A stretch of 64,000 bases of DNA from an uncultured Chloroflexia bacterium (GTDB lineage: Bacteria > Chloroflexota > Limnocylindria > Limnocylindrales > CSP1-4), in contig CAWGVH010000004.1 in NCBI GenBank assembly GCA_963825995.1, forward strand, positions 115,242 through 179,241, given 5' to 3'. How positions within the stretch are numbered: the stretch's first letter is position 1; each line of letters opens with the position of its first letter. This document shows, in pieces, positions 28,270 through 56,250 of the stretch. A model generated the notes under the pieces. The model did not search any database. It was not told where the DNA came from and saw only the letters and a program-made list of their open reading frames with translations. A program made the position numbers and the translations under genes.

Positions 28270-28722
28270 TCAGGCGTCCGGCGGGATGACACCCTTGCGC
28301 AGCATGAAGCAGCCGTAGAAGCGCCGTTCGCCGGTCTGGATGACGGCATAGGCGGTCCGTGCCAGATCGTAGAAGGCGAAGCGCTCGATGGGCATCAGGG
28401 GGCGGGGCCGACCCTCGGCGCGGTCGACCTCGACCTGGACCTCGGCCTGGACGGACGGGATGTCGTCTGGCGTGTCACCCACCTGCATGCGTCCCGCGAA
28501 GTCATCCACGAAGGTGTCCAGGGGCAGGACCGACAGGATGGCCTGCACGGCCTCCGCAGCGGTCAGGTTCTCCATGCGCAGGAGGGTGCCCGTGACCGTG
28601 GCCCTGGCAATGGCATCGGCGGGGAAGTTCGTGTCCGACACGATGAGCATGTCCCCGTGGCCCATGGCCCGCAGACAGCCGAGCACCTCTGCATTCAGCC
28701 GATGGTCGATCCCCTTGAGCAT
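28270..28722 (-). CDS. RbsD/FucU-family sugar mutarotase
   Basis: ATG at 28722 with a GGGGAGGA RBS. MLKGIDHRLNAEVLGCLRAMGHGDMLIVSDTNFP is the FucU/RbsD signature region. Confidence 0.85.
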   Translation of the reverse strand: MLKGIDHRLNAEVLGCLRAMGHGDMLIVSDTNFPADAIARATVTGTLLRMENLTAAEAVQAILSVLPLDTFVDDFAGRMQVGDTPDDIPSVQAEVQVEVDRAEGRPRPLMPIERFAFYDLARTAYAVIQTGERRFYGCFMLRKGVIPPDA

Positions 28723-28964
28723 GTCGTCCTCCCCTTGATGGTGTCTCACTCGCCCATGCCTTCTGATAGGTCGATGGTGCCACGAGCAACGGCCGCCGTC
28801 CGGCCGATCAGGAAGTCGGACGCGTCCATTCGGAGTCCTCGATACGGCGGTGGAATTGGCAAGACTCGGCACCTTGACAGCATTACTCTTGCGTGACCAT
28901 GCTGCCTGTCATCCAGCATCAGGGCTGGGATGGGCGGTGTCTTTGCCACGGAGGAGGAACGGTC

Positions 28965-30659
28965 ATGAAGGTCGAGCTCTACGAGGCGACGATGCGAACG
29001 GGGGGGCCCCGGCGGAGGCTGCTGCCGCGGGCGGCAGCCATCGGCGCAGCGGCGGCGCTGCTGATCGGCGTCCTGCCGGCCTACGCCCAGGACGCCCAAG
29101 CGATCTCGCCGGAGGAGGCCGCGCTGCGCGCTGAGATCCTGCAGATCCCGGGTGTTGGCATGGGCAGCCCGACCGACGCCGACTGGCAGAAAGTCGGCGA
29201 GATGACCCTTGGCCCCACCAAGGCCAACATCGCCGAGGGCGAGTGCTCCGGCGTCAATCTGAAGTTCATCGGCCTCAACAACCAGAACCTGCACAACTTC
29301 CTCTTCCGCGGCTTCCTCAAGCCGTGGGAGGACTACACCGGGGCCAGCATCGAGTGGCAGGACCTGGCGCAGGCTGACTACAACGGCTACATCCAGCAGG
29401 CCAAGGCGACCGGCACGGTCGACTGGGACATCATGGAGATGGGCGCCCCCTTCGAGGGTGACTGGGCCGGCGGCGGCCAGCTCGATCCCATGCCCGACTG
29501 GGTGGCCACGCAGATCGACATGGCCGACTACGTGGACTACCTCAAGCCGCCCATCGGCACCTGGAACGGCGACACGTACCGTATCTCCATCGATGGTGAC
29601 ACCCATACCCTGGCATACCGCACCGACTACTACGACAACGCGGACTTCGCGGCGGCGTGGGCCGATTCCGAGTTCAACACCGACGGGATCGAGTGGGCTC
29701 CGCCGAAGACCTGGGAGCAGGTCAACGCGCAATCGAAGTTCCTGGCCGGCAAGACGGATCCACTCACCGGTCTCGACGCCTACGGCATCGTCGACCCCCT
29801 GAAGTACCTGTGGGGTGGCTTCGGCTTCTACTTCTTGGCCGACCGCGCTGCGCCCTACGTCAAGGTCCCAGGCAACCCGGCGTGGCTGTTCGATCCCGAG
29901 ACGATGAAGCCACTCGTCAACAACGAGGGCTGGGTGCAGGCCATCCAGGACGTCATCGACCTGATCAACACGCCTGACGCCTACCCGCCTGACCAGATCA
30001 ACTCCGACCCCAACGCCACCGCTTTCCAGCAGTTCCTCGCCGGCACCGGCTCGCAGGTCATGTGGTGGGGCGACGTGGGCTCGAACGCCCGCACGTCCGA
30101 CACTTCCGTCGTCGGCGACGTAGTCGGCTTCGACATCAACCCAGGCACCACCCGCTACTACGACTGGCAGGCCGGAGCCTGGGTGGAGCAAGCCAACGAA
30201 TCGCCCATGAACGCCTACATCGGCTGGGGCATCTACGTCACCAAGAACGCGGCGCAGGACGAGCTGAAGCGCAAGTGCGCTTGGTCGGCCGCCGCGCATC
30301 TGGGCGGCAAGGACCTCTCGCTCTGGACGTCAGCCTATCCGTCAGGCTTCCAGCCCTATCGGAACTCGCACTTCAACTACGACGAGTGGGTGGCCGCCGG
30401 TTACGACCAGGCCTTCATCGAGGACTACCTCTCGTCGAACGCCGACAGCTACAACCACCCGAACGCGGCCAACGAGCCGCGCATCCCGGGCATCTTCCAG
30501 TACTACTCACGAGCGGAGGACGAGCTCGTCAAGGGCCTCGGCTCCGGCGCCAGCGCGCAGGACATCGCCGATGCCATCGCCGCCGGCTGGGAGGAGATCA
30601 CCGACCAGATCGGCCGCGATAGCCAGATCGAGCTCTATAAGGCCTCTCTGGGCCTGTAG
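28965..30659 (+). CDS. ABC transporter extracellular solute-binding protein (large, CUT1 type) with a twin-arginine-like signal
   Basis: ATG at 28965 with a GGAGGAGG RBS. GPRRRLLPRAAAIGAAAALLIGVLPAYAQ. Confidence 0.85.
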   Translation: MKVELYEATMRTGGPRRRLLPRAAAIGAAAALLIGVLPAYAQDAQAISPEEAALRAEILQIPGVGMGSPTDADWQKVGEMTLGPTKANIAEGECSGVNLKFIGLNNQNLHNFLFRGFLKPWEDYTGASIEWQDLAQADYNGYIQQAKATGTVDWDIMEMGAPFEGDWAGGGQLDPMPDWVATQIDMADYVDYLKPPIGTWNGDTYRISIDGDTHTLAYRTDYYDNADFAAAWADSEFNTDGIEWAPPKTWEQVNAQSKFLAGKTDPLTGLDAYGIVDPLKYLWGGFGFYFLADRAAPYVKVPGNPAWLFDPETMKPLVNNEGWVQAIQDVIDLINTPDAYPPDQINSDPNATAFQQFLAGTGSQVMWWGDVGSNARTSDTSVVGDVVGFDINPGTTRYYDWQAGAWVEQANESPMNAYIGWGIYVTKNAAQDELKRKCAWSAAAHLGGKDLSLWTSAYPSGFQPYRNSHFNYDEWVAAGYDQAFIEDYLSSNADSYNHPNAANEPRIPGIFQYYSRAEDELVKGLGSGASAQDIADAIAAGWEEITDQIGRDSQIELYKASLGL

Positions 30660-30668
30660 ATGAACGGG

Positions 30669-30734
30669 GGGGCGTGGCGTACGACCGCGCCCCTTCGACC
30701 ACCCACCCTGGGGTGCGTGCCAGCCGCGCACCCC
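30669..30734 (+). promoter_or_regulatory. Two intercistronic GC-rich stem-loops downstream of the SBP gene
   Basis: GGGGCGTGG/CCGCGCCCC at 30669-30693 and GGGGTGCG/CGCACCCC at 30710-30734. Confidence 0.45.
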
Positions 30735-30787
30735 ATCCGATTCCATGGGCGGGCCGAGGGGCCCCCCGACACGCACGGGACGCAGGA

Positions 30788-31892
30788 TTGAGCGGCGCCA
30801 ACCTCATTCACATCGTTCAGCCGGACGACATCACCCACTCGCGCAAGCGGATCGGCCGCATCCTGATCCGAGGCTCCTTCGCGCTCCTGCTCGTCGTCCT
30901 CGCCCTGCAGGTGCTCGATGTCCTGGGCATCATCGACATCGGCTTGCGGAACTGGCAGCCGACGTTGCTCGCCTGGATCGCCTGGTGCGTCTGCCTTTGT
31001 GTCGGCCAGGTGCTCATCCGCGGCGAGCAGGGCAAGCGCATCCTCTTCGTCCTGCCGGCCGCCCTCTTCGTGGTCTCGCTGACCATCATCCCGCTGCTGC
31101 TCGGGATCGCCATCGCCTTCTCTGACTGGAACCTCTCGTCGCCGACAGGCCCCAAGTTCGCCGGCCTGAGCAACATCGAGCGGATGCTGAGCGATCCGTT
31201 CTACTGGAACGCGCTCACCAACATGCTGTGGTACCTGCTGGGGGTGCTCGTCGAGTACGTCATCGCCTTCGGGCTGGCGCTGCTGCTGAGCATGCAGATC
31301 CGCGCTCGGCGCTTCTTCCGTGTGGCCTTCCTGTTGCCGCTCATGCTCTCGCCCGTGGCGGTGTCGTGGATGATCGGCAAGTCCATGCTGGAGTTCCGGT
31401 TCGGACCTGTGGCGCAGATCGCGCGCGCGCTCGGATGGAGCGACCCGGCGTTCTTCGCCAGCCCCGAGCTGGCGCGCGTCACGATGTCGGTGCTGGACGC
31501 CTGGATCTTCATCCCCTTCATGATGATCATGCTGCTTGGCAGGCCTGCAGGCCTTGCCGACCGAGGTCATCGAGGCCGCCCGCGTGGATGGCGCCTCCGC
31601 CTGGCAGACGCTGCGCAAGGTCATCTTCCCCTTGATGCTGCCGGTGTCGCTGACCGCCATCATCGTGCGCATCATCTTCAAGCTGAAGCTGGCCGACATC
31701 GTCATCAACATCACGGCCGGCGGCCCGGGTGGCGCCACGGACACGGTCACGAGCTTCATCTACCGCGAGTACCGCGACCGCTCCAACGTGGGCTACGGGA
31801 CGCTCCTGGCGATGTTCTATCTCATCGTCATCGTCATCGGCCTGACCGGGCTGATGCGTGGGCTTAGTCGCTGGATGAGGCCCTACTCGTGA
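30788..31892 (+). pseudogene. Sugar ABC transporter permease, reading frame broken near 31535
   Basis: ...DAWIFIPFMMIMLL lies in one frame. (L)AGLQALPTEVIEAARVDGASAWQTLRKVIFP (the EAA loop) continues in the +1 frame (track ORF 31536..31892). The TTG start at 30788 is tentative. Confidence 0.7.
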
Positions 31893-32833
31893 CGGCCGCG
31901 CAGGGGACTGCCAAGGGCCCGGCAGCGATCTTCCACGATGGCGAATCGGACCTCGCCTACAAGGCCAAGTGGTACACGAGCCGGGTGGTCATCTACGGGC
32001 TGCTCATCGGCTGGACCATCGTCTGCATCTTCCCCATCTACTGGACAATCACCACCAGCTTCAAGATGGCGCCGGACGTGATGCAGAGCCACCTCATCCC
32101 GTTCGTCGACTTCCAGCCGGCCTGGCTGGGCTGGCGCTCACTGGGCCTGTCGCCCGAGACCATCGGCGCCGCTAGCACCGTTCGCGACCAGTTCCTGACG
32201 CGCTTCGAGAACTCGGCCATCGTGTCCCTGTCGGCCTCAGGGTTGGCCGTCTTCCTCGGCACGCTCACCGGCTACGGCCTGTCGCGCTTCGGCTACCAGT
32301 TCGGCTATATGAAGAACTCCGACATCGGCTTCTTCTTCATCAGCCAGCTCATCCTGCCGCCGGTGGTCCTGGCGCTGCCCTTCCTCGTGCTCTACAAGGA
32401 GTTCGGGCTGCTGGACACCCACATCGGGCTCATCATGCTGTACGCGCTGACGGTACTGCCCATCGTCGTCTGGATCATGCGCGACCAGTTCATGACCATC
32501 CCGACGGAGCTGGACGAGGCCGCTATGGTCGACGGCAAGGGCGTCTGGGGCGCCTTCTTCAGCATCATCGTGCCCATCGCGCTGCCGGGCATGGTGGCGG
32601 CGTTCGTGCTGTCGCTCGTGCTCACGTGGAACGAGTACTTCTTCGCGGCGCTGCTGACGTCCACGCAGACCATCACCCTGCCCGTCATGGTCGCGAGCCA
32701 GACGGGCAGCCAGGGCATCTCCTGGTGGAGCATGGCGGCTATCTCGTTCGCGGCCATCCTGCCCCTCATCATCGTGGGCGTCCTGCTCGAACGCTTCATC
32801 GTGCGGGGCATGTCGGCCGGGGCCATCAAGTAG
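31889..32833 (+). CDS. Sugar ABC transporter permease
   Basis: GTGA overlap with the upstream gene. EAA loop IPTELDEAAMVDGKGVWGAFFSIIVP. Confidence 0.9.
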   Translation: MTAAQGTAKGPAAIFHDGESDLAYKAKWYTSRVVIYGLLIGWTIVCIFPIYWTITTSFKMAPDVMQSHLIPFVDFQPAWLGWRSLGLSPETIGAASTVRDQFLTRFENSAIVSLSASGLAVFLGTLTGYGLSRFGYQFGYMKNSDIGFFFISQLILPPVVLALPFLVLYKEFGLLDTHIGLIMLYALTVLPIVVWIMRDQFMTIPTELDEAAMVDGKGVWGAFFSIIVPIALPGMVAAFVLSLVLTWNEYFFAALLTSTQTITLPVMVASQTGSQGISWWSMAAISFAAILPLIIVGVLLERFIVRGMSAGAIK

Positions 32834-32893: not shown

Positions 32894-33439
32894 TCACTCC
32901 ATGTTCGTGTGGCGAGCCCGCATCGTCTCCGCTGTCTCACTGAGGGCCTCGCGCAACTCCAGGACGAGGACCTCGAAGACCAGGAACATGGCCCCCTCGA
33001 AGAGCGAGCCCATGGGCAGGACGGAGGTGCCACCGATGTCCCGGGCCATGGTCTGGGCCGGGATGACCAGGAGGTCATCGGCCATCTTCGCCGTCTCGCC
33101 CTCGGGTTCGGCGGTCACGACCAGCACTCGCGCCCCTGCCGAGCGCGCCACGCCGCAGAGTGCCGAGGCCGTGGGGAGCGCGCCGGGCCCGGCGGCGCAG
33201 AGGAACAGGTCACCCGGGCCCAGCGGGAAGGCCGTCATGTCGCCCTGCATGCAGACGTCGAGGCCCAGATGGTGGAGCCGCATCGCCAGCGCGCGCATCA
33301 TCAGCCCCTCGCGGCCGCAGCCGAAGAGCATGATGCGCCGCGAGTCGGCGATGGCACGTGCGGCCGCCTGCAGCTCTGCATCCTCCATCCGGGACGCGAC
33401 GTCCGCCAGCTCGGCGGCTGCCTCCTGGATCGTGCTCAC
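32894..33439 (-). CDS. SIS-domain protein, 6-phospho-3-hexuloisomerase (PHI/HxlB)-like
   Basis: RIMLFGCGREGLMMRALAMRLHHLG...LFLCAAGPGALPTASALCGVARSAGARVLVVT. The GTG start overlaps the kinase stop (GTGA). Confidence 0.8.
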   Translation of the reverse strand: MSTIQEAAAELADVASRMEDAELQAAARAIADSRRIMLFGCGREGLMMRALAMRLHHLGLDVCMQGDMTAFPLGPGDLFLCAAGPGALPTASALCGVARSAGARVLVVTAEPEGETAKMADDLLVIPAQTMARDIGGTSVLPMGSLFEGAMFLVFEVLVLELREALSETAETMRARHTNME

Positions 33440-34959
33440 GGCGTCTCTCCCAGTATTACCTGCTCCCCGGGTGGACGGTCCTCCCCGAGTCCGTGGCTGA
33501 TGTCCCTGGTCTGCTCATAGAGCGCCTTCCATAGCGGGTACTGCCGATCGTAGGCGGGCACCGGCGCCGGCCTCACGGTGCGCTCGACCGGGTTCCACTC
33601 CCCGATCTGGCCAGGGGTGGCCGCACCCACGGCGATGGCCGCCAGGAAGGCATCCCCGTAGCTCGCGCCGACCGTTCGCTGGCGCACGAGCTGCGGCACC
33701 TGCCCGCAAGTCCGAGGTGGCCTGCAGCCAGGGCGCGTTCTTCGTCCCGCCGCCGACGGCGTAGACCGCGCGCGGGTCGGCACCCGCCTGGCGATAGGTC
33801 TCCAGGACGTGGGCCGTGCCCGCCGCGATGCCTTCCAGGACAGCTCGGAACAGGTCGCCACGCGTGTGCGTCAGGTCGAGGCCGAAGAAAGCGCCCCGGG
33901 CCTGCGGGTCGTGGATGGGTGTCCGCTCGCCGGAGAAGTGGGGCAGGCAGAGCAGGCCCTTGGCGCCCTTCGGGCTGGCCTGCGCCTCCGCCACAAGCGC
34001 TCCGAAGTCGGCGTCCCGGGCCAGCTGGTCGCGGAACCAACGCGTCAGCGTGCCGGAGGTCGCGAGGCCCGCCATCGAGGCATGCGTCCCGGGGACGAGC
34101 CAGGGCGCATACCAGAGTCGGGGATCGCGGACCGGCCGGTCGGTGACCTGGATGATGAAGACCGTCGAGCCGTACATGAGCATCATCTCGCCCGGGGCCT
34201 GGACCCCGACGCTGACCGCCTCGGCGACCGCGTCGACGGTGCCCACGGTGACGGGCGTGCCCTCGGCCATTCCCGTCTCGGCGGCGGCGGCCGCGGTGAC
34301 GTGGCCGGCGATCTCGGCCGACCAGCAGCAGCCGCGGCAGGCGGCTCCAGGGGCACGATGTCGGGAGCCAGCTCGGCGGACCAGTCCAGCCGGTTCACGT
34401 CGTAGAGCGGCGAGAAGTTGGCGGCCGTGTAGTGGTCGATGACGTACTCCCCGGTCAGCTTCCAGACCAGGTAGCTGGTGGAGGTCAGGACCTTGGCAGT
34501 GCGCGCGTACAGGTCCGGAAGCGTCTCCTTGAGCCACAGGATCTTGGGACCGGCCGACTGCGAGGTCAGGGCGTTGCCGCAGGCCTCCATGATGGCTTCC
34601 TCGCCGACCCGTTCGTTGAGAGCGGCGATCTGGGCCCTGGCGCGAGTGTCGACCCCGTAGAGGACGGCGTTCATGAGGGGCTCGCCGCGGGCGTCCACGG
34701 GCAGCATGCAGGGGCCGATGGCGCTCGTGGCCACGGCGTCGATGGCCCGCGGGTCCAGGCCGGTGACCGCCAGGAGCTCGCGCGTGATGGCCACGAGGTC
34801 GCCCCACCAGTCCTCGCGGGGCCGGTGCTCTGCCCAGCCGGGCTGCGGCACGAGCATCTGGTGCGGCCGCGTGGCCGTGGCGACGACGTTGCCCTCAGCA
34901 TCGGCGATGACGCCCTTCGACTCGAAGGTCCCGATGTCGATGCCGAGGGTGTGGCTCAT
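33436..34959 (-). pseudogene. FGGY-family carbohydrate kinase, at least two frame breaks (~34335 and ~33710)
   Basis: MSHTLGIDIGTFESKGV...APDIVPLE lies in frame 1. SAEIAGHVT...GGGTKNAPWLQATSDL lies in frame 2. CGQVPQLVRQRTVGASYGDAFLAAIAVG lies in frame 3. Confidence 0.8.
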
Positions 34960-36043
34960 GGCGCCCGGACGAGGTCCAGGTCTGGTCCGATGCGGTCGAG
35001 TGCGGCGTCGAGGAGGCGCACCAGGTTCGCGATGTCCTCCGGGTCGACGACCTCCAACGCGGAATGCGAGTAGCGCACGGGCACGCCGACGTCCAGGCAG
35101 GCCACGCCCTGCGGACCCGTGAACTGGATGTAGCTGAGGTCCGTCAGCAGGCCGGTGTGCGCCGAGCGCTGCAAGCGGAGGCCCCGGTCCGCCGCGGCGG
35201 CGTCCATGAGCCGGACGAGCGCCGGGATGTGGGATGACGCCGTTGAGGGTGCCGCGTCCGTGGAACGAGAACATCGAGATGGCCGGACCAGCGCCCAGCT
35301 CGACGTCACCACGATCGGCGACCTCCGGCGTGTCGCAGGCGAGGAGCGTGTCGATGGAGATGCGCGATGTCCGGGCCCAGCGCCGTTGCCGCCGGCAGGA
35401 CCCCGCGCAAGTTGTGCTCCTCCTGGACCGACCAGACCAGGTGCAGCGTCGGCCCGGGCTTGCCCGACCGTGCTTCCGCCAGGGCGAGCAGCGCCGCGCA
35501 ACCCGCTCGGTCGTCGACCGACGTGCCGGCCATGCGGCCACCGGCCAGGTCGAGGGCACGGGGCTGGTAGACGACGGGCGTGCCGATGCGGACTCCAGCC
35601 GTCTCCGGCCTCCTCCTTCGAGGCGAAGCCGGCGTCCACGGCCAGCTTCTGGCGTAGGGCACGACCTGGTACTTCTCGTCCGGCGTGGTGGCGTGGTGGC
35701 TCTTGTTGGAGATGACGCCGGGCAGGTCGCCGTCCTCCGTGCAGAGCAGCACGGCCTGGGCCGGAAGTGCGCGTTCGGGGACGCCGCCCTGACGCTCCAG
35801 CCGGATGAGCCCTGAGGGCTCGATCTTGCGAACGATGAAGCCCAGCTGATCCATATGGGCGAAGATCATGACCGACGGCAGGGCCGGATCGCCCGGCAGC
35901 GTGGTGGAGAGGTTGCCCAGCCGGTCCGAGCGGTGGGCGAGCCCCAGGCGGTCGAGGTGCGCCGCGATGGCGTGGGCCACGCGCGCCTCGTATCCCGCCA
36001 GGCCGGGGATGAGCATCAGCTCCCGGAGCAGCTCACGGGTCAT
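34956..36043 (-). pseudogene. M42-family metallopeptidase (FrvX/SgcX-like), four frame breaks
   Basis: MIFAHMDQLGFIV and TSVDDRAGCAAL motifs. The continuation is spread over three frames, with junctions at ~35652, ~35608, ~35362 and ~35226. ATGA overlaps at both ends. Confidence 0.8.
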
Positions 36044-36853
36044 GCCCCACCCCGCGTCGCGCGCACGCGGTCCATGAAGTCCGTGGCGCGGTCCGGATCG
36101 ACCGGGGACCAGGTGTCGCCGCCGTACTTGAGGGCCGAGCCCACGATGACCCCATCGGCCACGGCCAGGACATCGGCCACGGTGTCGTGCTTGACCCCCG
36201 TGTTGGCCAGCACAGGCGTCGTCGGGCAGCACGCGCTTGACCGCCTCCAGGTCGCTCATGGCAGCGGGCTCGCCGGTGATGGCACCTGAGACGAGTACGG
36301 CGTCCGGGATCGAGGAGACGACCGCCGATCGAGCTCTGTCAGGCAGGCTGCGACGGTCGAGCGAATTGGCGAATTCCGCCGAGACGTTGTACAGCTTCAC
36401 GACCTCCCCTGCCCCGAGACGGCGGCCATAGCGCAGCGCCGCTCCGGCGTCCGGGTTCCAGGGGCCCATGTCGGAGGCGTACGTGCCGGTGAAGATCTCG
36501 CGCACGAAGCGCGCCCCGGTGACCGCGGCGAGGGCCATCGTCGAGCGTGGGTCCCACAGCACGTTCACGCCGAAGGGCACCGTGATCTCGTCCCGCAGTC
36601 GCCCGACGACGTAAGCCATCGTGGCCGTAGCAGCCACGTCTACCTGCAGCTCGTAGGGCCGGTCGTGCTCGTTCCCGAACATGACCGCATCGAAGCCCGC
36701 CGCCTGGAGGGCCCGGAGGTCGGTGCGGGCGTCGGTGATGATGCCCTCCACCCCGCGATCCGCGTCGTACAGCGGCGTGCCCGGCGTGGCGCCGACGTGC
36801 ACCATGGCGATGATGGGCTTGACGGCCCCGAACAGGTCGCTGTATCGCGTCAT
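36040..36853 (-). pseudogene. BtpA/SgcQ-family TIM-barrel protein, frame break near 36215
   Basis: KPIIAMVHVGATPGTPLYD...GFDAVMFGNEHDRPY lies in one frame up to VLPDD. PVLANTGVKHDTVADVLAVADGVIVGSALKYGG continues in another frame. Confidence 0.75.
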
Positions 36854-36910: not shown

Positions 36911-37867
36911 TCAGCCGGCCGCGCGCACCTCGTCGACGATGGCGTGGCAGCGGGCCGGGTCAGGGAACGAGGACTGCGTCCCCGGGCGCAGCACCGACTC
37001 GGCCGCGATGGCACATCCCAGCCGCACGGCATCGACCTCGTCCCAGCCTGAGGCGAGCCCGAAGGCGAAAGCGCCGACGAAGGCATCACCCGCCCCGGTC
37101 GTGTCCACGGCCTCCACGCGCGGGGCCGGGATGACGCGCAGGTCACCGCCCTCGCCGACGAGCGCAGCGCCCCGCTCGCCGAGGGTCACGAGCAGCCGCG
37201 CGGCCAGACCCTCGGCGACCCGTGCCAGCGCAGCGGGATCCGACACGTCAGGCGGCAGGCCCGCGGCCCGCGCGATGATGGCGAACTCCGTCTCGTTGGG
37301 GACGATCCAGTCGCTGACGGCGGCCAGGTCCGGGTCGATGGCGGCCCCGGGTGCTGGGTTCAGGATCGTCGTCGCCCCGCGCTCGCGCGCCGCCCTGAAG
37401 GCGGCGGTGGTGACGGCCTGCCCGATCTCGAACTGCGCGATGACAGCCTCGACGTGCTCCTGGGCCAGCACCGCCGCGGCGGCCTGTTCGGGCAGGAGGC
37501 CGTCGTTGGCACCGGGCACGACGATGATGCGATTGCTGCCGTCGGGCTCGACCCAGATGGGCGCCACACCACTCGAACCGGGGAAACGAAGGACGTGCTC
37601 GGTATCGATGCCGTAGCGGGCGAAGTTCGCCAGGGTCTGCTCGCCGTAGCTGTCCTCGCCGACCCCGTTCACCATGGCCACCCGGGCGCCCATGAGGCGC
37701 GCCATGACCGCCTGGTTGGCGCCCTTGCCGCCAAAGCCCTGCGCGAAGCGGTCGCCGATGACGGTCTCACCCCGCTCCGGCATGCGGGCGGCGTAGGCGA
37801 TCTGGTCGATCATCGTGCTGCCCACCACGGTCAACCAGGGACCGGACCCACCCGTCTGCGTACCCAT
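36911..37867 (-). CDS. rbsK: Ribokinase (PfkB family)
   Basis: VVGSTMIDQIAY...GFGGKGANQAV...VDTTGAGDAFVGAFA are ribokinase signature motifs. Confidence 0.85.
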   Translation of the reverse strand: MGTQTGGSGPWLTVVGSTMIDQIAYAARMPERGETVIGDRFAQGFGGKGANQAVMARLMGARVAMVNGVGEDSYGEQTLANFARYGIDTEHVLRFPGSSGVAPIWVEPDGSNRIIVVPGANDGLLPEQAAAAVLAQEHVEAVIAQFEIGQAVTTAAFRAARERGATTILNPAPGAAIDPDLAAVSDWIVPNETEFAIIARAAGLPPDVSDPAALARVAEGLAARLLVTLGERGAALVGEGGDLRVIPAPRVEAVDTTGAGDAFVGAFAFGLASGWDEVDAVRLGCAIAAESVLRPGTQSSFPDPARCHAIVDEVRAAG

Positions 37868-38179: not shown

Positions 38180-38560
38180 TTGGACACGCACGTGTGGCTC
38201 TGGCACGTGGGCGGCTCGGACCGGCTGTCGCCCGGCCTGCGGACAGCGATCGATGCCGCGGTCGGACGACTCTGGTACTCGCCTATCTCCGTCTGGGAGA
38301 TCGGCATGCTTCACACTCGCGGCAGGATCAGGCTCGAGGGCGGTCCGCGCGCCTGGCTGGAGACGGCCCTGGCGCGGTTCCCGCTCGAAGAAGCCACGCT
38401 GACCCGCGAGGTCGCTCTTCGGAGCACCGAGTTGGACCTGGGCCATCGGGACCCGGCTGACCATATGTTGGCCGCGACCGCCCTGGCGCACGGCCTCACG
38501 CTTGTCACCCTCGATGCGCGACTGACAGGCGCGGACTGGCTGCCGACGCTGTCGGACTAG
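38180..38560 (+). CDS. vapC: PIN-domain toxin (VapC family)
   Basis: (YL)LDTHVWLW...SPISVWEIGML...DPADHMLAATALAHGLTLVTLD. The TTG start at 38180 is tentative, because the frame stays open upstream to 38126. Confidence 0.8.
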   Translation: MDTHVWLWHVGGSDRLSPGLRTAIDAAVGRLWYSPISVWEIGMLHTRGRIRLEGGPRAWLETALARFPLEEATLTREVALRSTELDLGHRDPADHMLAATALAHGLTLVTLDARLTGADWLPTLSD

Positions 38561-38585: not shown

Positions 38586-39524
38586 CTACCGACCGGCTTC
38601 CAGCCCTTGCGCCTCGTTGATCAGGCGTTCTACGTCGGCCGGGCCCAGGGCATCGCGCTCGTCCTCCGGCGTGCCCACGTGCAGGGCGGCGGCCGCGTTG
38701 GCGTAGCGCAGCACGTCAGCGAGGGGTGCGGCGGCCGCGAGGCGAGCGCCGAGCGCACCGACGAAGACGTCGCCGGCGGCATGGGTCTCCACCCGCGGCA
38801 CAGGGTGTGCCGCGTAAGTCACGGTCTCGGGGCCAGAGGCGGCCGCGACGCCGGCTCCACCCGCGGTGACGACCACGGCCGGAGCCAGCGCGAGCAGTGC
38901 GCGGGCGGCCGCCGAGGCGCTCTCGAGGTCGTCGACCGGGCCGCCGCCCAGCATCTCCGCCTCGACGGCGTTGACCACGAGCACATCGACCAGCCCGGCG
39001 AGGCTCCCCAGTGGGCGGGCCGGGGCCGCGTTCAGGACGACGGTGGCCCCGGCAAGCCGGGCGAGGCGCGCGGCAGCCGCGTTGGCTGGCTCAGCGATCT
39101 CGTTCTGGAGCAGGAGAACGCGACTGCCTGCGATGATCGCGCTGCTCTGGGCGATCTGCTCGTCATCGAGCTGGAGGTTGGCACCGGATACGACGATGGC
39201 GGCGTAGTCGCCGCTGCCCTCCTGGATGGCCACGCTCATGCCCGAGCCCTGCGCCACCATCCGAACGCTCGCCAGGTCGACTCCCGAGTCCTCGAGGCTT
39301 TGGCGCAGCCGCGCACCGAACTCGTCGTCACCGAGACAGCCGACCATCCGCACCGTCGCGCCGTGGCGAGCGGCGGCCACCGCCTGGTTGGCACCCTTGC
39401 CGCCCTGCTTCCACCACCAGGCGTCACCGATGAGCGTCTCGCCGGTGCGCGGCAGGTAGGGCGCCCGCACCATGATGTCGAAGTGCAGGCTGCCGACGAC
39501 GCAGACGCGCGGGTGTTCGGCCAC
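38586..39524 (-). CDS. PfkB-family sugar kinase (ribokinase-like)
   Basis: GTG at 39524. VCVVGSLHFDIMV, KQGGKGANQAVAAA and THAAGDVFVGAL. Confidence 0.8.
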   Translation of the reverse strand: MAEHPRVCVVGSLHFDIMVRAPYLPRTGETLIGDAWWWKQGGKGANQAVAAARHGATVRMVGCLGDDEFGARLRQSLEDSGVDLASVRMVAQGSGMSVAIQEGSGDYAAIVVSGANLQLDDEQIAQSSAIIAGSRVLLLQNEIAEPANAAAARLARLAGATVVLNAAPARPLGSLAGLVDVLVVNAVEAEMLGGGPVDDLESASAAARALLALAPAVVVTAGGAGVAAASGPETVTYAAHPVPRVETHAAGDVFVGALGARLAAAAPLADVLRYANAAAALHVGTPEDERDALGPADVERLINEAQGLEAGR

Positions 39525-39552
39525 GGTCAGGTCGATCGCGAGCGAGCCGCGC

Positions 39553-40542
39553 TCACCAGTTCCGGGCGAAGATGGTCGCCTGGACGAGGCGGTGGGCGGC
39601 CACGGCGTCGTGCTGTTGGAGCGCCGCGTCAAGCTCTGCCTCCGGCAGGCGGTCGAGGACGTCGAACATGGCCTCGATGGTGACGACGTTCGCCGCACAC
39701 TCGGCGACCGGATCGATGGCCGCCACGTCGGGGAAGGTGTCGAAGTACATGGCGCCGGCGAAGCTGTCCCGGCGCAGCTGGCGAAGCAGCTCGATGGTCT
39801 GGACGGTGTGTACAGAGCCGACCATCAGGCCGTCGTCACGGTGGCCGTAGCCATCGTTCATGTGGAGGCCCAGCATGCGGCTGCGGCGGCCCACCAGCGC
39901 CGCCGCCATGGCCGGGCTCGTGTCCGCCTCCAGGACGTGCCCGAAGTCGAGCGTGACGCCCAGGTTGGGCGCGCCGGCCTCGGCGATGGCCAGCAGCGTG
40001 GCCGAGACGTTGGGGAGGATCATGATGCTGCGCGGCTCGCTGGGCTTGTATTCGATCGAGACCGGGAAGTCAGGGGCGTGCTCGGCCACCTGGCGGATGC
40101 CCTCCACCTCCCAGTCCCACAGTCGCGCGTAGTCGACCTGGAACGGGTGGTCGAAGCCGTCCTGGCCGGGCCAGATGGTGAGCATCCGTCCACCGGCCTC
40201 ACGTGTCTCGTCGATGCCGCGGCGGCTCAGGTCGATGGCGCGCTGGCGGACCACCGGGTCGGCGTTCGTGAAGGCGCCCGAGCGGAAGGCAGGGTCGCCG
40301 CCGTAGCGCATGGCAAAGCCGTTGAGCACGAGACCACGGTCGGCGATGCGGGTGCGCAGCCGGGAGGCCTCGATACCCGTCGTCTGCTGCGGATAGTTGA
40401 TGTCCACGGCGGACAGGCCGGGGACCGTCGCGGCACGGTCGATCAAGTCGAGCGTCGTGGGCCGATCGGTGCGGCCGGGCCAGGCCAGCTCCGGTCGGGT
40501 CGCGAAGGAGTTGAGTCGTGCGGCGTACAGGTAGCGGGCCAT
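39553..40542 (-). CDS. Sugar-phosphate isomerase/epimerase (xylose-isomerase-like TIM barrel)
   Basis: ATG at 40542 (MARYLYAARLNSF). The pattern of conserved E/H/D (TIWPGQDG, SIEYKPSEP, TLDFGHV, LHMNDG) is typical of the AP_endonuc_2 fold. Confidence 0.7.
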   Translation of the reverse strand: MARYLYAARLNSFATRPELAWPGRTDRPTTLDLIDRAATVPGLSAVDINYPQQTTGIEASRLRTRIADRGLVLNGFAMRYGGDPAFRSGAFTNADPVVRQRAIDLSRRGIDETREAGGRMLTIWPGQDGFDHPFQVDYARLWDWEVEGIRQVAEHAPDFPVSIEYKPSEPRSIMILPNVSATLLAIAEAGAPNLGVTLDFGHVLEADTSPAMAAALVGRRSRMLGLHMNDGYGHRDDGLMVGSVHTVQTIELLRQLRRDSFAGAMYFDTFPDVAAIDPVAECAANVVTIEAMFDVLDRLPEAELDAALQQHDAVAAHRLVQATIFARNW

Positions 40543-40639
40543 GGCGTGAAGCCTACCGGACGCGTGCTGATGCAGCGAGCAGAGCCTGCCGGATCGGCCG
40601 GGCACCGGGCGCTTCCGGCACGCATGGCGGGCTCATGGA

Positions 40640-42290
40640 TCACGCGCCCATGTAGAGGCGCCGGGCGATCTGGTCCTCCAGCGAGAGCCAGCGGCGGCCC
40701 GCCTCGTCACTCGCGCGGTGGCCCATGGCGGCATCGCGCAGTGACGCGAGCCGCTCGAGGGGAAGCAGCTGGTGGGCGTCGATCTCCTCGGCGATGCGCA
40801 CGAACTCTTCAGCGGCCTCGACGCCCCCCAGCAAGGGTGCCGCGTCCTCGGCTATGAATCGCCCCCAGGTCAGCGTCGGATCCCAGGAGAAGCGTGCGAA
40901 GGCGAGATACGAGAGCTCTACCGTGGCGTGGTACGGCGAGGGCTCGCCCCACACCGTGAGGCCCTCCATACCGCGGTCGGCGCACAGTCGCGCCATGTCG
41001 CTGAAGACGCGAGCATTGAGAGCGTACCGCTCGCTCCGCTCGTCGCCATTCCACTGGCAGGCAAACTGACAGCGCAGCACGTTGGGCTGCGTGGGTAGGC
41101 TTGCCATGTAATCACGGGTCAGCTCGCGCTGGATGCGGCCCCAGTACGTCCGATTGGTGGTGTGCTGATAGATGCCGCCCCTGGGCAGGCGACGCTGGGC
41201 CTCGTGGGCCACCGGGTCCAGCAGGTTGTCCCACTGGATCTCGCTGTACAGCCAGAGGTCGGGCTTGATGGCCGTTGCGGTCTGGTAGAGCCGCGGGAAG
41301 CTGTCCGCCATGTCCGTGTGGGACCAGGAGTCGCCGTGATCGTCGATGCGCCGGGAGGATTCCGCCTCGTTGGCGCGCCGGGCTACGCAGCGGTCGCAGC
41401 CACACACTCCGTAGTCGCCGGCCTCGATGTTGATGCCGCCCAGCTCGAAGGTCTCGGTGAGCCAGGCCACGCCCTCCTCCATCCAGGCCATCGTCTCGGG
41501 GGCCGAGGGGCAGGCAGAGAGCGTGTAGTCCGACTTGGGGAAGTTGAGGGGGAAGGCCAGGTCGGAGATCTGGAATCCGACACCCTTCTCGAGCGTGGCC
41601 GCGTGTTGCGGATGGGCCTTCAGCCAGGTAGCCAGGTTGAAGCGGTGGTCCCCCTCCCAGTAGCAGCCGCCATAGGAGCCGATGGCGATGCCCGGCAGGA
41701 TGCGCACGCCGCGCTCAGTGGCATAGCGGCACAGCTCCTGGGCAGCCTCGATGCCACCGTGCGGATCGCGCAGGAAGCCGTAGATGACGATGGCCGCGAT
41801 GCGATGCCTCGAGCAGAAGTCCACGCAGCGCTGGTAGTCCCGCAGGAAGCCGCCCGGTGGCTTGCCATAGGGATTGAAGACGCCGATCTCCTGCTGGCCC
41901 ACCTGGGAGAGCTCCCAGTTCGTCGAGTGGTCCCAGGTCCAGAAGGTGCGATACGCCAGGCCCGGCGCCTGTGAGATGACGCCTTGAGAGATGGCGATTC
42001 GACCGGGATGCGTGCCGCCGCGAGCGATCAGCTCTTCAGCGCCGTAGATGACGCCGGAGAAGGGGCCGCCCACGATGGCTGATCCGCTGCGGCTCAGCCT
42101 CGATTCGGAAGGCGCCTTCAGGAAGGGATGGATCGTCCATGAGCGTGACAGCAGCTGCACCCGCTCCGGCCCCGCCGTCCAGCCAGCCGATGCCGGGGAA
42201 TGACTCCCGCAGGCGCCGTGCCGCGTGTCGGTGACGATCGCCGCCCTCCAGCGAGATCGCTCCCTCAAGCGTGATCCACTCAGCTGTCAT
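40640..42290 (-). pseudogene. Unknown ~550-aa protein (possibly a glycoside-hydrolase-like TIM barrel with a Cys cluster), frame break near 42078
   Basis: The N-terminus MTAEWITLEGAISLEG...AFRIEAEPQRI lies in track ORF 42036..42290. AIVGGPFSGVIYGAEELI... continues in track ORF 40640..42268. It contains WTWDHSTNW and GINIEAGDYGVCGCDRCVARR. Confidence 0.6.
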
Positions 42291-42326
42291 GTGTGCCCTC
42301 CCCGCAAGACCTGCGCGCTCCGTCAG

Positions 42327-42827
42327 CTACGCGTCCCGCTCCCAATACCAGTAGTCGGTCCGGAACTCGTCGTACTCCCGCCTGGCCGTCATGCGCTCCA
42401 CCTCGATGACGATGACCCTGGTGTCGTGAAGCAGGTTCTCCCCATGCTGATAGTCGGGCTCACCGAAGTACTGCATGAACACCTTGAAGGTCCGGATCAG
42501 CTCCTCGGGCTCGGTGACCACTCTCGCCTTCCCGTAGGCGATGACGCTCTCCCAGGGCCCGTGGCACTTCAAGGACTTGTCGAGGTCGCGCCGGTCCCCG
42601 TAGAACCTGGTGATGACGTAGGAGACGTTGGGGTTCTGGGCGATGGTGTCCAGCTTCCGACCGGTGGTGGCGCAGTGGAAGAAGAACCGGCCGTCCTGGT
42701 AGGCGTGGTTCACAGGGACCGCGTAGGGCTCACCGTCGAGTGCCATGCACAGGACGCCCTGGAAGGTGCCAGCGATCATGCCTTCGCACTCCGCGTTGTT
42801 CCTGACGGGGTGGTACTGCTGCTTCAT
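42327..42827 (-). CDS. Pyridoxamine-5'-phosphate-oxidase-like FMN-binding protein
   Basis: GVLCMALDGEPYAVPVNHAYQDGRFFFHCATTGRKLDTI resembles the split-barrel flavoprotein family. Confidence 0.7.
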   Translation of the reverse strand: MKQQYHPVRNNAECEGMIAGTFQGVLCMALDGEPYAVPVNHAYQDGRFFFHCATTGRKLDTIAQNPNVSYVITRFYGDRRDLDKSLKCHGPWESVIAYGKARVVTEPEELIRTFKVFMQYFGEPDYQHGENLLHDTRVIVIEVERMTARREYDEFRTDYWYWERDA

Positions 42828-42833
42828 CGCTGC

Positions 42834-43196
42834 CTAGTCGAGGGGATGACCCAGCACGGTGTAGTAGGCGAGATTGGGCTGCCGGACATCCATGCGGCCG
42901 ATCTGGCAGACGATCGGCGCGCTGGACTCCAGCTTCAGGGCGTACTGGCCGAAGGGGATCTGGAAGCCGCCGATGGGCTCGTTGGTGCGGATGCAGCGCA
43001 CCCTCCGGGCGCCCACGACGAGCGGCTCGAGGACCTCTGGCTCGCGGTCCTCGAAGTAGACCGTGACGACGACCCTGGCGTCGGTCTCGCCGGGGTTGAG
43101 CATGATGAGCGACTCGTGGCCCTGCGGCGGATCGCCCGCTGGCGGGATGTCGCCGTCCGGGAAGAACCAGGTCCGTGAGCCCTGCCTGCCGGCCAT
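42834..43196 (-). CDS. ASRT (Anabaena sensory rhodopsin transducer)-family protein
   Basis: ATG at 43196. WFFPDGDIPPAGDPP..HESLIMLNPGETDARVVVTVYFEDREP...ARRVRCIRTNEPI...SSAPIVCQIGRMDVRQ matches my recollection of the ASRT/TM1070 family pattern. Confidence 0.6.
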   Translation of the reverse strand: MAGRQGSRTWFFPDGDIPPAGDPPQGHESLIMLNPGETDARVVVTVYFEDREPEVLEPLVVGARRVRCIRTNEPIGGFQIPFGQYALKLESSAPIVCQIGRMDVRQPNLAYYTVLGHPLD

Positions 43197-43200
43197 CGCG

Positions 43201-43947
43201 CTAGCCCTGCTTCGAGAGGATGGTGCGCATGCGCTCGAGGACGAGGTCCGCACCGAACTGCCCGTACTCCTTCGTGGCGTCCTTGGCGGTCGCGAGATAC
43301 CACTTCTCTGTCGACAGGTGATCCATGTCCACGCTCTCGGGACAGAGCGCCATCATCAGCGAGGTCTCGCCCTTGGCCGCGTGGTCGAAGTCGTACTGGC
43401 TGATGATCTCGGCATCCATCAAGGGGTGGCCGGAGATCCAGTTGAAGGGGTTCGCGCCGCGCTCATGGTCGGCGTAGTAGCTCGACATCTCGTTGCTGCC
43501 CCACCAGCCTTCGCCGCGCTCCTTCTCGAGGAACTCGAAGATGGCCAGGCGGGCACCCGTCCGGAAGGCCAGGTCCGTGGGCATGCCCTGCATGAAGTTC
43601 TCGGACTGGTGGTGGATGAAGAAGTGGATGTTGCGGAAGCCGATACGCAGCAGGCTGCGGAAGAGGTCCTTGGTGAAGGGGATGAGGTGTTCACCATCGA
43701 CCTGCACGCTGCCCTTGCCCTCCGGGGGCTCGACCGCGTAGCTGGCCGGGCCCCACCAGAAGGTCGGCATCAGGACCATGTCCATCTCCGACTCCAGCCG
43801 CTCGGCCGTCTTGACCACGACCAGCGTGTCCATGCCGACGGACATGTGCTCGCCGTGATACTCGAGCGGCCCGACCGGCAGGACGACGGGCCAGTCATCG
43901 TCGATGGCCTTGCGGATGTGGTGCGGCAGCATCAGTTCGTAACGCAT
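43201..43947 (-). CDS. Creatininase-family amidohydrolase
   Basis: VVLPVGPLEYHGEHMSVGMDTLV...FIHHQSEN is the creatininase-fold metal-site context. Confidence 0.75.
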   Translation of the reverse strand: MRYELMLPHHIRKAIDDDWPVVLPVGPLEYHGEHMSVGMDTLVVVKTAERLESEMDMVLMPTFWWGPASYAVEPPEGKGSVQVDGEHLIPFTKDLFRSLLRIGFRNIHFFIHHQSENFMQGMPTDLAFRTGARLAIFEFLEKERGEGWWGSNEMSSYYADHERGANPFNWISGHPLMDAEIISQYDFDHAAKGETSLMMALCPESVDMDHLSTEKWYLATAKDATKEYGQFGADLVLERMRTILSKQG

Positions 43948-44028
43948 GACGATCTCCCCTCCGTATGCAGCCTCGGCGTCACCGGGCGGGCGAGTCGGCG
44001 CGCGCGGCTGGCTCCCCCTTCCCTGCGG

Positions 44029-45204
44029 CTACCGATCGAGCTCGATGATCTCCATGTGCGTGCCGCTGCTGAGCCACTCGGCAGGCCCGCTCTCCTTGAC
44101 GAGCATGCCGTCTTCCCAGCGCAGCCCGAAGTCGTCGTCGTAGAAGAAGGTGTCCGCCTGGAACGTCATGTCCGGCTCGATGACGTACTCGCTGATCGAC
44201 TCCATCCAGGGCTGCTCGACCTCCATCAGCCCGAGGCCCGTGCAGGGCCCGTACAAGTAGTGCTGCCACTTGCCCTGGGCCTTGACATACTCCTCATAGC
44301 GGATGGCGACCTCCTTGGCCACCACACCCGCACGCACCCAATCGCGGGTCCGGTGGTGCATGTCAAGGCCGAACTCGATGAGCGAGCGCTGTCGGTCGGT
44401 CATCCTGCCCAGGCACAGCGGACGGCCCACTGACGGCGAATAGCCGTCGACGCGGCCACCGACGTTGATCTGGATGATGTCGTTCTGCTCGAACCGCCGG
44501 TGGGTGCCGCGGGAGATGCCGTTGGAGGTCTTCTTGCCGCCGAACGAGTAGACCGTGTGGGCCTCGCACTCGGCGCCATTGCGGTAGAGCACGTCGATGG
44601 CGATGCCGGCCAGCTCCAGCTCGGTCATGCCCGGCTTGACAGCCTCCAGCATGGCCTCCAGGGCCAGCTCGCCGAGCCGGAAGCCCTCGCGCAGGCAGGC
44701 CAGCTCGGCCGGCGACTTCACGGCCCGGAGCTTGGTCGTGATGAAGTCGGCGTTCACGATCTCAGCTTCTGGGAAGGACGCCCGCAGGCCCTCGTACATG
44801 GCCATGTTGGTGCACAGGTAGCCGGCCACGCCGACGCGCTTGACATCGGTCACGCCGATGGATTCACAGACCTGGGCGTAGGTATGCCCGGCGATGCTCG
44901 GGTAGACCGGGTCGGCGGTCTCCCGGTACTCCTTCATGAGGTGGATGTTGTCGATGACGCTGCGGCCCTTGGCGAACTCCTCGGACTCCATGCCCACCAT
45001 GAGGGCCGACTTCCCGGAGGGCGCGATGGCCACGCCGCCCATCTCGAAGAGCGGCCAGTAGGCCGAGAAGTAGCGCACGTTAGAGGCGTCCGAGTCGGTG
45101 CCGTTGGCCACCAGCACGTCCAGACCTGCCTCTGCCACCAGCCCGGCAGCCTTCTGCCGGCGCTCTGCGTACTCCTCGACTGGGATCATCGGTCTGTCGC
45201 TCAC
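44029..45204 (-). CDS. M24-family metallopeptidase (Xaa-Pro aminopeptidase/creatinase-like)
   Basis: Creatinase_N-like N-terminal domain (GLDVLVANGTDSDASNVRYFS), followed by a pita-bread domain (VKPGMTELELAG...QINVGGRVDGYSPSVGRP...FYDDDFGLRWEDGMLV). Confidence 0.8.
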   Translation of the reverse strand: MSDRPMIPVEEYAERRQKAAGLVAEAGLDVLVANGTDSDASNVRYFSAYWPLFEMGGVAIAPSGKSALMVGMESEEFAKGRSVIDNIHLMKEYRETADPVYPSIAGHTYAQVCESIGVTDVKRVGVAGYLCTNMAMYEGLRASFPEAEIVNADFITTKLRAVKSPAELACLREGFRLGELALEAMLEAVKPGMTELELAGIAIDVLYRNGAECEAHTVYSFGGKKTSNGISRGTHRRFEQNDIIQINVGGRVDGYSPSVGRPLCLGRMTDRQRSLIEFGLDMHHRTRDWVRAGVVAKEVAIRYEEYVKAQGKWQHYLYGPCTGLGLMEVEQPWMESISEYVIEPDMTFQADTFFYDDDFGLRWEDGMLVKESGPAEWLSSGTHMEIIELDR

Positions 45205-45524: not shown

Positions 45525-45833
45525 ATGGCGCGCGTGGCGTGGACCGCGAGACTGCGGCCGGACTGCATCGATGCGTATCTAGAGGCGCACGCGGCGGTCT
45601 GGCCGGACGCGCTCGCCGCGATCTCGGCAGCTGGCATCCGCGACTACTCGATCTGGCTGTTCGAGGACCGTGTCTTCGCGCAGTACGAGTGCGACGACCC
45701 GCAGGAGGCGCTGCGTATCGAGGGTGCCGCTGAGGCGACCGTCCGCTGGCGCGCCCACATGCGCGAGTACTTCATGCCCGAGGTCGCCACCGAGGGCGTC
45801 GTCTGGCTGTCGGAGATCTTCCGGCTGGATTGA
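45525..45833 (+). CDS. rhaM: L-rhamnose mutarotase family protein
   Basis: 102 aa. RLRPDCIDAYLEAHAAVWPDALAAISAAGIRDYSIWLFEDRVFAQYEC is typical of RhaM/DUF718. Confidence 0.8.
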   Translation: MARVAWTARLRPDCIDAYLEAHAAVWPDALAAISAAGIRDYSIWLFEDRVFAQYECDDPQEALRIEGAAEATVRWRAHMREYFMPEVATEGVVWLSEIFRLD

Positions 45834-46759: not shown

Positions 46760-47530
46760 TCAGCGAGCCGTCCAGCCGCCGTCGACCATGAGCGTCGTAC
46801 CCGTCACGAGTGCAGCGGCGGGCGAGGCCAGGTACACGACCGCGCCGGCCACGTCGACGGGCTCACCGATCCGATGCAGCCCGGCGATGCGCTCCACGAC
46901 GTCGGCCGCGAAGGCTGGGTCTGACAGGGCCGGCTCCGTCCCAGGCGTGCGGATGAAGGTGGGCGCCACGGCGTTGACGTTGATGCCGTGCTGGCCCCAT
47001 TCCACTGCCAGGCACTTGGTCAGGTGCGAGACAGCCGCCTTGGAGGCGCAGTAGATGGCTTCCCCGGGCAGTGCGATGAAGCCCGCCTGCGAGCTCAGGT
47101 TGACGATCCTGCCCGAGCCCTGGCGGATCATCACGCGACCGACCGCCTGGCTGGTGAAGAAGAGGCCCTTGACGTTGGTGTCAAAGGTCAGGTCGTAGTC
47201 GGCCTCGTTCACTTCGTCAGCCGGATTCTCCGGCCCCAGGCCGGCATTGTTGACGAGGATGTCGATGCGACCCATGGTCTCGACCACGGCGTCCACCGCG
47301 GCCGTTATCTGGCCGATATCCAATACATCCATAGCCACCCGCATGGAGCGCCGCCCCATGGCCTCGATCTGCATCGCGAGGTCCGCTGCGTCAGTGGCGT
47401 TGCGCAGGCCCAGGGCCACTTCAGCGCCTGCATCGGCGAGGGCGAGGGCGATGGCGCGACCCAGCCCGCGCGCCGCGCCCGTGACCAGTGCGGTCTTGCC
47501 CTGCAGGCTGAAGTCCGGGTACTCAGTCAT
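46760..47530 (-). CDS. SDR-family oxidoreductase (KduD/gluconate-5-dehydrogenase-like)
   Basis: TGAARGLG cofactor motif, NNAG, and the YCASKAA catalytic YxxxK. Confidence 0.9.
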   Translation of the reverse strand: MTEYPDFSLQGKTALVTGAARGLGRAIALALADAGAEVALGLRNATDAADLAMQIEAMGRRSMRVAMDVLDIGQITAAVDAVVETMGRIDILVNNAGLGPENPADEVNEADYDLTFDTNVKGLFFTSQAVGRVMIRQGSGRIVNLSSQAGFIALPGEAIYCASKAAVSHLTKCLAVEWGQHGINVNAVAPTFIRTPGTEPALSDPAFAADVVERIAGLHRIGEPVDVAGAVVYLASPAAALVTGTTLMVDGGWTAR

Positions 47531-56244: not shown

Positions 56245-56250
56245 CCGGCG

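Follow-up and report, generated by a model that had tools for sequence, protein, structure and literature searches.

A conserved gene cluster of Chloroflexota, predicted to degrade a sugar conjugate, encodes a glycoside-hydrolase-like barrel protein and a non-canonical M24-fold enzyme

Analysis of a 64,000-nucleotide stretch of DNA from an uncultured Chloroflexia bacterium (here called the window; assembly GCA_963825995.1, contig CAWGVH010000004.1) places a seven-gene minus-strand run within a larger conserved locus. This locus is composed of a cassette encoding an M24-fold enzyme, a creatininase-family amidohydrolase and an ASRT protein, a gene for a large barrel protein, and an isomerase/kinase module reaching approximately 28.3 kb. 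We consider it somewhat more probable than not that the core of the locus imports and degrades a small glycoside bearing an N-acyl or amidino group, the sugar of which would enter pentose-phosphate metabolism. The genes, folds, conserved residues and co-occurrence reported below are observations, from which we infer each reaction and the substrate. An initial annotation of the window had recognized the seven genes and ventured a nitrogen-linked sugar conjugate as the substrate; it missed the resemblance of an unknown protein to glycoside hydrolases, the lack of a canonical active site in the M24 protein and the ability of the creatininase fold to cleave C-C bonds.

The unknown protein, first described as a product of about 550 residues, is encoded by an interval of 1651 nt that does not read through. 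Aligned to an intact 546-aa orthologue, the interval matches residues 1-68 in a first frame and switches at about 42077 to a second frame for 69-546, and contigs from three independent public runs lack one base at this position; one of these, 504 nt long, otherwise differs from the window by a single letter. With the base missing from all three, the break stems from an error in the assembly, and the real product is about 549 residues long. A real frameshift or pseudogene was ruled out on the same evidence, other assemblies being broken at different places. The 700 homologues collected comprise proteins of 65-90% identity across Chloroflexota and Alphaproteobacteria, plus a tail of distant relatives; the nearest ones come from genome bins of Chloroflexota, in keeping with a host of that phylum.

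An AlphaFold (AF2) model of the intact orthologue (predicted local distance difference test score, 94.5) consists of an alpha/beta N-domain like those of GH20b and GH67N, a (beta/alpha)8 barrel and a helical C-domain. The best structural matches are the glycoside hydrolase (GH) families GH84, GH20, GH138, GH67 and GH115 (Z 17-20.5, 7-16% identity), with no clear winner. These families, together with DUF4838 (GH163, GH185), share the three-domain architecture and have carboxylates conserved after strand 4, as does the barrel protein. The N-terminal zincin-like domain and barrel of GH20/GH84 are both present. At the profile level, GH20b reaches 25.4 bits against a cut-off of 26.1, PDB profile matches are confined to the N-domain, and neither Pfam nor NCBIfam, including the GH20/GH84 catalytic-domain profile, gave a match over the barrel. 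DUF4838 (PF16126) matches 8 of 45 relatives weakly (best 8e-7) and leaves a close orthologue unmatched.

Residues retained in near and far members alike are D117, W122, R171, H174, Y203, E286, D289 and E446 (orthologue numbering, here and below), and a four-cysteine site (Cys257/293/295/298) is also conserved. The fourth barrel strand (282-286), numbered from the model and not by residue-level superposition, ends in E286-x-x-D289, where GH20 and GH84 carry an adjacent Asp-Glu or Asp-Asp pair that is absent here. As the GH-like barrel lacks this catalytic pair and conserves a four-cysteine site, the family is best regarded as unclassified: judging from the model, the protein looks like a glycoside hydrolase of the GH20/GH84/DUF4838-type clan outside any named family, and hydrolase activity is predicted accordingly. 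No signal peptide was evident by eye, and GH185 provides a precedent for a cytoplasmic clan member with different catalytic residues (PMC10570127).

The genes are co-conserved, as examination of neighbourhoods in two samples makes clear. Across 80 genome loci centred on the barrel gene, orthologues (identity of at least 40%) were found for the isomerase, the PfkB kinase and the creatininase (15 loci each), the CUT1 binding protein (13), RbsD and PNPOx (12 each), SIS (10), and M24 and ASRT (8 each); the CUT1 ATP-binding cassette (ABC) transporter as a whole is co-conserved in 13-14 loci. Orthologues of the RhaM-type mutarotase (62-77%) adjoin the barrel gene in five Chloroflexota loci, and the PNPOx-like gene does so in Chloroflexota loci only. 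The genus sample comprised 48 other genomes: 18 have both the M24 and the barrel gene, 1 has M24 alone, 6 have the barrel alone and 23 have neither; the corresponding counts for isomerase and barrel are 20, 1, 4 and 23. These genomes are kin rather than independent samples, so that P-values computed from them overstate the significance. From the M24-barrel counts, chance adjacency of the cluster genes is unlikely, and 17 of the 18 pairs lie on one contig within about 15 kb. The cluster is nevertheless patchy, as the M24 gene was not found with the window query in 200 genomes sampled across the class.

This comparison does not bear out a fixed seven-gene operon. No locus other than the window showed the exact order, and most linked genus genomes (14 of 17) have the M24-creatininase-ASRT cassette inverted, 3 sharing the window's orientation. 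The order of the seven genes here is one local layout of a cluster that is itself conserved.

A second line of evidence comes from 36 metagenome loci anchored on the M24 gene, in which creatininase follows it directly in 20 and ASRT in 10; the barrel family of the window is present in only 6. Eight other loci encode instead a different Pfam-less protein, mostly of about 590 aa (one has 874 aa and one is partial), whose nearest atlas clusters belong mostly to Planctomycetota, Lentisphaerota and Verrucomicrobiota. Profile comparison (hhalign 96%, E 2.4e-9, across the shared Cys site) relates this family to the barrel family of the window, and the 874-aa bridging protein scores against both profiles. 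The same trio of M24, creatininase and ~590-aa barrel was present in two creatininase-anchored loci, and one cassette-bearing locus resembling those of Planctomycetota-Verrucomicrobiota-Chlamydiota (PVC) bacteria adds a ribulokinase and a ribokinase, both above cut-off. The ~590-aa proteins are a second candidate glycoside hydrolase family. In different phyla, then, the M24-creatininase cassette accompanies two remote branches of a single barrel superfamily, and this is the strongest sign of functional coupling.

Both enzymes of the cassette depart from their characterized namesakes. In alignments of the M24 protein to 1PV9 and 3Q6D, the prolidase metal ligands D/D/H/E/E read N(D)247, S258, T322, D351 and E364, position 322 being His in 22 of 32 homologues, and the His of the prolidase PHG motif corresponds to an invariant I230. 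Invariant within the subfamily are H235, C321, E328 and E330, as well as D351 and E364. Assignment as an Xaa-Pro peptidase (M24B) was rejected because most of the five metal ligands are lost or changed. Assignment as a creatinase or as the ectoine hydrolase EutD was likewise rejected: Ile230 stands where the catalytic His of these enzymes, which we take to be equivalent to the PHG His, is expected. The model is equally near prolidases, creatinase and EutD (16-22% identity), and the protein represents an uncharacterized M24 subfamily. The creatininase-family protein, in contrast, has its binuclear metal ligands intact (PF02633, 105.6 bits against 31.3). At least 97% of 120 homologues keep E29, H31, D40, H112/H113, E116, H189 and E194, and either Q114 or E116 may be the equivalent of Glu122. 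Its scores fall far below the equivalog cut-offs for TIGR04448 (82.9/235), IolN (44.6/245) and MftE (34.7/172).

Creatinine degradation relies on a creatininase and creatinase pair, and the same two folds stand side by side here. The cluster differs from that system in scoring far under equivalog level, in lacking the creatinase His, in the sugar genes that surround it and in having no sarcosine oxidase nearby. Ectoine catabolism (DoeA/EutD, DoeB/EutE, EutB) offers another parallel, as M24-fold, AstE/AspA deacylase and Thr-dehydratase-like enzymes also occur around the barrel family. Scores against the ectoine enzymes lie below the cut-offs (DoeA/EutD, 50.5/575 for the M24 protein; DoeB/EutE, 278.9/402.7; EutB, 217/413), M24 and DoeB were not seen in one locus, and sugar transporters and kinases replace doeC/doeD.

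The IolN of the Thermotoga myo-inositol pathway illustrates that the creatininase fold operates in sugar catabolism and can cut C-C bonds too. One might propose that no amide chemistry is involved, the creatininase-fold protein opening the oxidized ring of a cyclitol or keto-sugar as an IolN-like C-C hydrolase and the M24 protein acting as a DddP-like lyase, with a cyclitol glycoside or an aminocyclitol as the substrate. IolN is indeed the second NCBIfam match of the creatininase gene, the M24 protein has neither peptidase nor creatinase residues, Gfo, zinc dehydrogenase and AP_endonuc_2 genes flank the cassette in three loci (L144, L145, L147), and an IolE-like gene (by eye) precedes the barrel gene in L032. 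We nonetheless hold this proposal to be quite improbable: the protein is far below the IolN cut-off and its IolN score is under its creatininase score, the Chloroflexota clusters have no dehydrogenase, and the alternative neighbours, a DoeB-like deacylase, a CE4 deacetylase and pyridoxal phosphate (PLP)-dependent ammonia-lyases, point to an N-acyl or amino group.

The remaining enzymes point to a sugar. The isomerase has the class I xylose-isomerase motifs W-x-G, E-x-K and D-x-x-H and the downstream Asp; it falls below the XylA (68.7/447) and RhaI (49.3/531) equivalog cut-offs. Its nearest solved structure is PDB 3KTC (E 1e-52), which is probably the D-apiose isomerase ApsI. No transketolase gene was seen beside the isomerase; an FGGY gene is near. 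The first PfkB protein scores 240 against 299.65 for ribokinase (TIGR02152) and, unlike the DTTGAGD of ribokinase, has a conserved His in the GAGD-proximal motif. The second keeps DTTGAGD and reaches 275 bits against the same cut-off; its gene adjoins the first in the relatives L007 and L013. The ASRT protein passes the PF07100 cut-off and retains the His of the H..C ligand signature, the Cys being replaced by Ile. Solo ASRT genes without rhodopsin beside sugar isomerase, kinase and ABC genes have already been published (De Souza et al. 2009, PMC2739507); in the part of that paper available to us, M24, creatininase and the barrel are not among the neighbours described.

Two PfkB kinases, a SIS gene and the M42 and M24 folds in one cluster might also recall the salvage of Amadori compounds or glycated amino acids, in which peptidases would trim glycated peptides, PfkB would phosphorylate the ketosamine and SIS would deglycate it. 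This version of the nitrogen-linked conjugate, raised in the initial annotation, is very improbable. The SIS protein is a single domain of 181 aa closest to HxlB and not a two-domain deglycase, the first PfkB scores 46 against 247 for fructoselysine kinase, the M24 protein is not a canonical peptidase and such a route needs no glycoside hydrolase. The broader idea of a nitrogen-containing sugar conjugate is supported, because amidohydrolase and PLP ammonia-lyase neighbours recur around the barrel gene.

A pathway consistent with these features would begin with one small nitrogen-substituted glycoside, imported by the CUT1 ABC system; its sugar would carry an N-acyl or amidino group or be linked to an amino acid or cyclic amidine. 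The cytoplasmic barrel protein would then cut the glycosidic bond, with E286 and D289 after strand 4 as the likely catalytic acids and the four cysteines binding a structural metal. By analogy to creatininase followed by creatinase acting on a different substrate, the creatininase-fold and M24-fold enzymes may hydrolyse two C-N bonds in turn, first an amide or lactam and then an amidine or second amide. The mutarotases, xylose-isomerase-type enzyme, ribokinase-like and FGGY kinases and SIS protein are predicted to act on the freed sugar, probably a pentose, and to convert it to a pentose-phosphate intermediate, while ASRT may bind a sugar intermediate.

Proteobacterial loci suggest a variation on this theme. 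Further genes there are those for a DoeB-like deacylase, a Thr/Ser dehydratase and a Gfo dehydrogenase, each in 27 loci, and for a lactonase, in 17; among the 43 that span at least 15 kb, an amidohydrolase neighbour was found in 31 and a Ser/Thr-type dehydratase in 26. The neighbours of one homologue at 48% identity include Gfo, lactonase and a PLP enzyme of the DSD1 type. The Gfo neighbour could not be equated with any known dehydrogenase, the matches being weak. In Alphaproteobacteria, dehydrogenase, lactonase, DoeB-like deacylase and PLP ammonia-lyase would often take the place of the C-N hydrolysis and sugar-processing steps. From family chemistry, this set may yield an N-acyl amino-aldonate by oxidation, then remove the acyl group and finally deaminate the product in a PLP-dependent step. 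Possible, though somewhat doubtful, is a wider reading in which an undescribed pathway shared by Chloroflexota, Alphaproteobacteria and PVC bacteria breaks down a common N-modified sugar; examples would be acetamidino or amino-acylated sugars of microbial glycans, or a pentosylated cyclic amidine. N6-threonylcarbamoyladenosine (t6A), glycosylated mycosporines, streptothricin, creatine riboside, hamamelose and apiose were considered as substrates, and none was supported by any test.

Several observations weigh against a single pathway of this kind. In 20 of 74 loci the barrel gene lacks every tested partner in its vicinity, and a single Chloroflexota clade accounts for all cases in which M24, ASRT and PNPOx adjoin the window's barrel family. 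The transporter-RbsD-ribokinase, isomerase-ABC-ribokinase and BtpA-FGGY modules each stand alone in rhizobia, Labrenzia or Thermus. A search of a plasmid collection returned no barrel orthologue and left the creatininase likewise unmatched, and the solute-binding proteins have no close ligand-bound structural relative (best E 2.5e-6 and 2e-13). At the enzyme level, a shared fold alone does not demonstrate that the barrel is a hydrolase, and the M24 active site fits no known catalytic set, so that its hydrolase role may not hold.

Some of these facts would be expected of a mosaic sugar island, in which at least three independent modules (the M24 cassette, the barrel gene, the pentose isomerase/kinase genes and BtpA-FGGY) have different substrates and cluster only because, in this lineage, catabolic genes tend to pile up and travel as a group. 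The solitary modules and barrel genes, the inversion of the cassette, and the sigma-factor-like pair or toxin gene that breaks the run in some genomes all speak for such an island. We regard it as unlikely, since M24 occurs without the barrel in only 1 of 19 M24-bearing genus genomes, the cassette also pairs with the distant barrel cousin in other phyla, and the combination of barrel, creatininase, RbsD and the same solute-binding protein is found repeatedly in Alphaproteobacteria. In a quick barrel tree rooted at its midpoint, from which no direction of transfer was drawn, creatininase neighbours are spread over several separate clades. A stand-alone module comprising a large solute-binding protein, permeases, LacI, RbsD and ribokinase occurs on many rhizobial plasmids, including Rhizobium etli p42c (L137, RHE_RS23365-23340), which offers a tractable host in which to look for the ligand.

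The preferred reading, a coupled catabolic locus, is laid out on the window in Table 1. The assembly amounts to 2.67 Mb at 70% GC. Six of the seven genes first reported are clean minus-strand open reading frames (ORFs) at the coordinates given, the barrel gene being the exception, and their family assignments are borne out by Pfam, all above curated cut-offs (Peptidase_M24 and Creatinase_N, Creatininase, ASRT, Pyridox_ox_2, AP_endonuc_2, PfkB). Intergenic gaps from M24 to PfkB measure 81, 4, 6, 36, 97 and 28 nt, the second and third agreeing with the 4-6 nt noted earlier between the creatininase and PNPOx genes. The cluster does not end at 38586, as had been thought, and continues past an inserted PIN-toxin gene to about 28270 with the second ribokinase-like gene, BtpA/SgcQ, M42, FGGY, SIS, CUT1 ABC and RbsD/FucU genes, in that order. 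On the other flank, the neighbours described as divergent are so in part: rhaM and ubiA lie on the plus strand, and the short-chain dehydrogenase/reductase (46760-47530) and CUT2 ABC genes on the minus strand. The UbiA, UROD-like and ROK genes to the right of 45.9 kb are not counted as part of the cluster because none has an orthologue of at least 40% identity in the 80 barrel-anchored loci.

Table 1. Features of the locus in the window, and members of the related barrel family in other loci
Feature	Position	Strand	Remark
M24-fold enzyme, 391 aa	44029..45204	-	non-canonical active site
Creatininase-family metallo-amidohydrolase, 248 aa	43201..43947	-	distinct subfamily
ASRT/ASRAH beta-sandwich, 120 aa	42834..43196	-	predicted sugar binder
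PNPOx/NimA-like split-barrel flavin-binding protein, 166 aa	42327..42827	-	
Glycoside-hydrolase-like barrel protein, ~549 aa	40640..42290	-	spurious extra base at 42077
Xylose-isomerase-type aldose-ketose isomerase, 329 aa	39553..40542	-	
Ribokinase-like PfkB kinase, 312 aa	38586..39524	-	
Second ribokinase-like PfkB	36911..37867	-	
BtpA/SgcQ, M42/SgcX-like, FGGY kinase, HxlB-like SIS isomerase	32894..36853	-	several frame breaks
CUT1 ABC transporter: large solute-binding protein and two permeases	28893..32833	+	
RbsD/FucU mutarotase	28270..28872	-	ORF bounds; coding part ~150 aa
RhaM-type mutarotase	45525..45833	+	
Members of the second Pfam-less barrel family, mostly ~590 aa	L119:3337-5100, L120:5005-6846, L106, L107, L109, L113, L126, L144, L145		candidate glycoside hydrolase family

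Additional features accompany the locus. The PIN/VapC-like toxin gene (38180-38560, plus strand) lies between the two PfkB genes that adjoin in relatives, and a second PIN-like gene occupies 27590-27994. Further frame breaks affect the ABC permease, BtpA, M42 and FGGY genes between 30674 and 36853, of which the break at 36220 is a one-base error, as judged from an independent contig. Genes like URO-D/MtaA recur beside the M24 cassette or barrel gene (50705-51758 in the window; L007:8713, L102:2801 and L147:6397, about 27-28% identical to the window copy) and may hint at an O- or N-methylated substrate. In four loci (L001, L005, L007, L036), a gene resembling those for extracytoplasmic function sigma factors and a 500-aa partner gene (by eye) share one insertion point directly after the barrel gene. 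Upstream of the cluster, four Chloroflexota genomes (L001, L004, L005, L007) have a gene like those of TRZ/ATZ-type deaminases and another, separate CUT1 transporter, neither of which was found in the genome of the window. A gene like GH65 trehalose/maltose hydrolase-phosphorylases with a HAD phosphatase neighbour (54196-57159, by eye) is unrelated to the cluster. A promoter and terminator scan of the locus stayed at chance level, and public RNA runs yielded small shares, in contigs of relatives mostly below 95% identity, that carry no information on expression.

In agreement with the initial annotation, no described operon accounts for the cluster: neither curated families nor the searchable literature, a search that left out most subscription journals, assign it a pathway. 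Literature queries on the family combination, on BtpA with M42 and FGGY, on mycosporine catabolism, on IolN and on the oxidative amino-sugar route returned no matching pathway. The nearest parallel to the downstream part is Escherichia coli sgcXBCQAER, a system of unknown substrate that is induced on nitrogen-containing substrates (PMC13343008). SgcQ and SgcX match the adjacent BtpA/SgcQ and M42 genes, whereas the window has ABC transport and kinases in place of a phosphotransferase system, and no SgcE epimerase was seen.

Until the substrate is found, this cluster is one among many unassigned sugar-catabolic clusters. The locus type, a sugar-conjugate catabolic locus, is conserved in soil and wetland bacteria, and its presence in the cultured carriers Kaistia, Devosia, Bauldia litoralis and Flavimaricola marinus means that the substrate can be sought directly. 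Its identity could provide a handle on the orphan families ASRT, BtpA/SgcQ and SgcX-like M42. The analysis ties a candidate new glycoside hydrolase family and an M24-fold enzyme of no known catalytic type to named partner enzymes.

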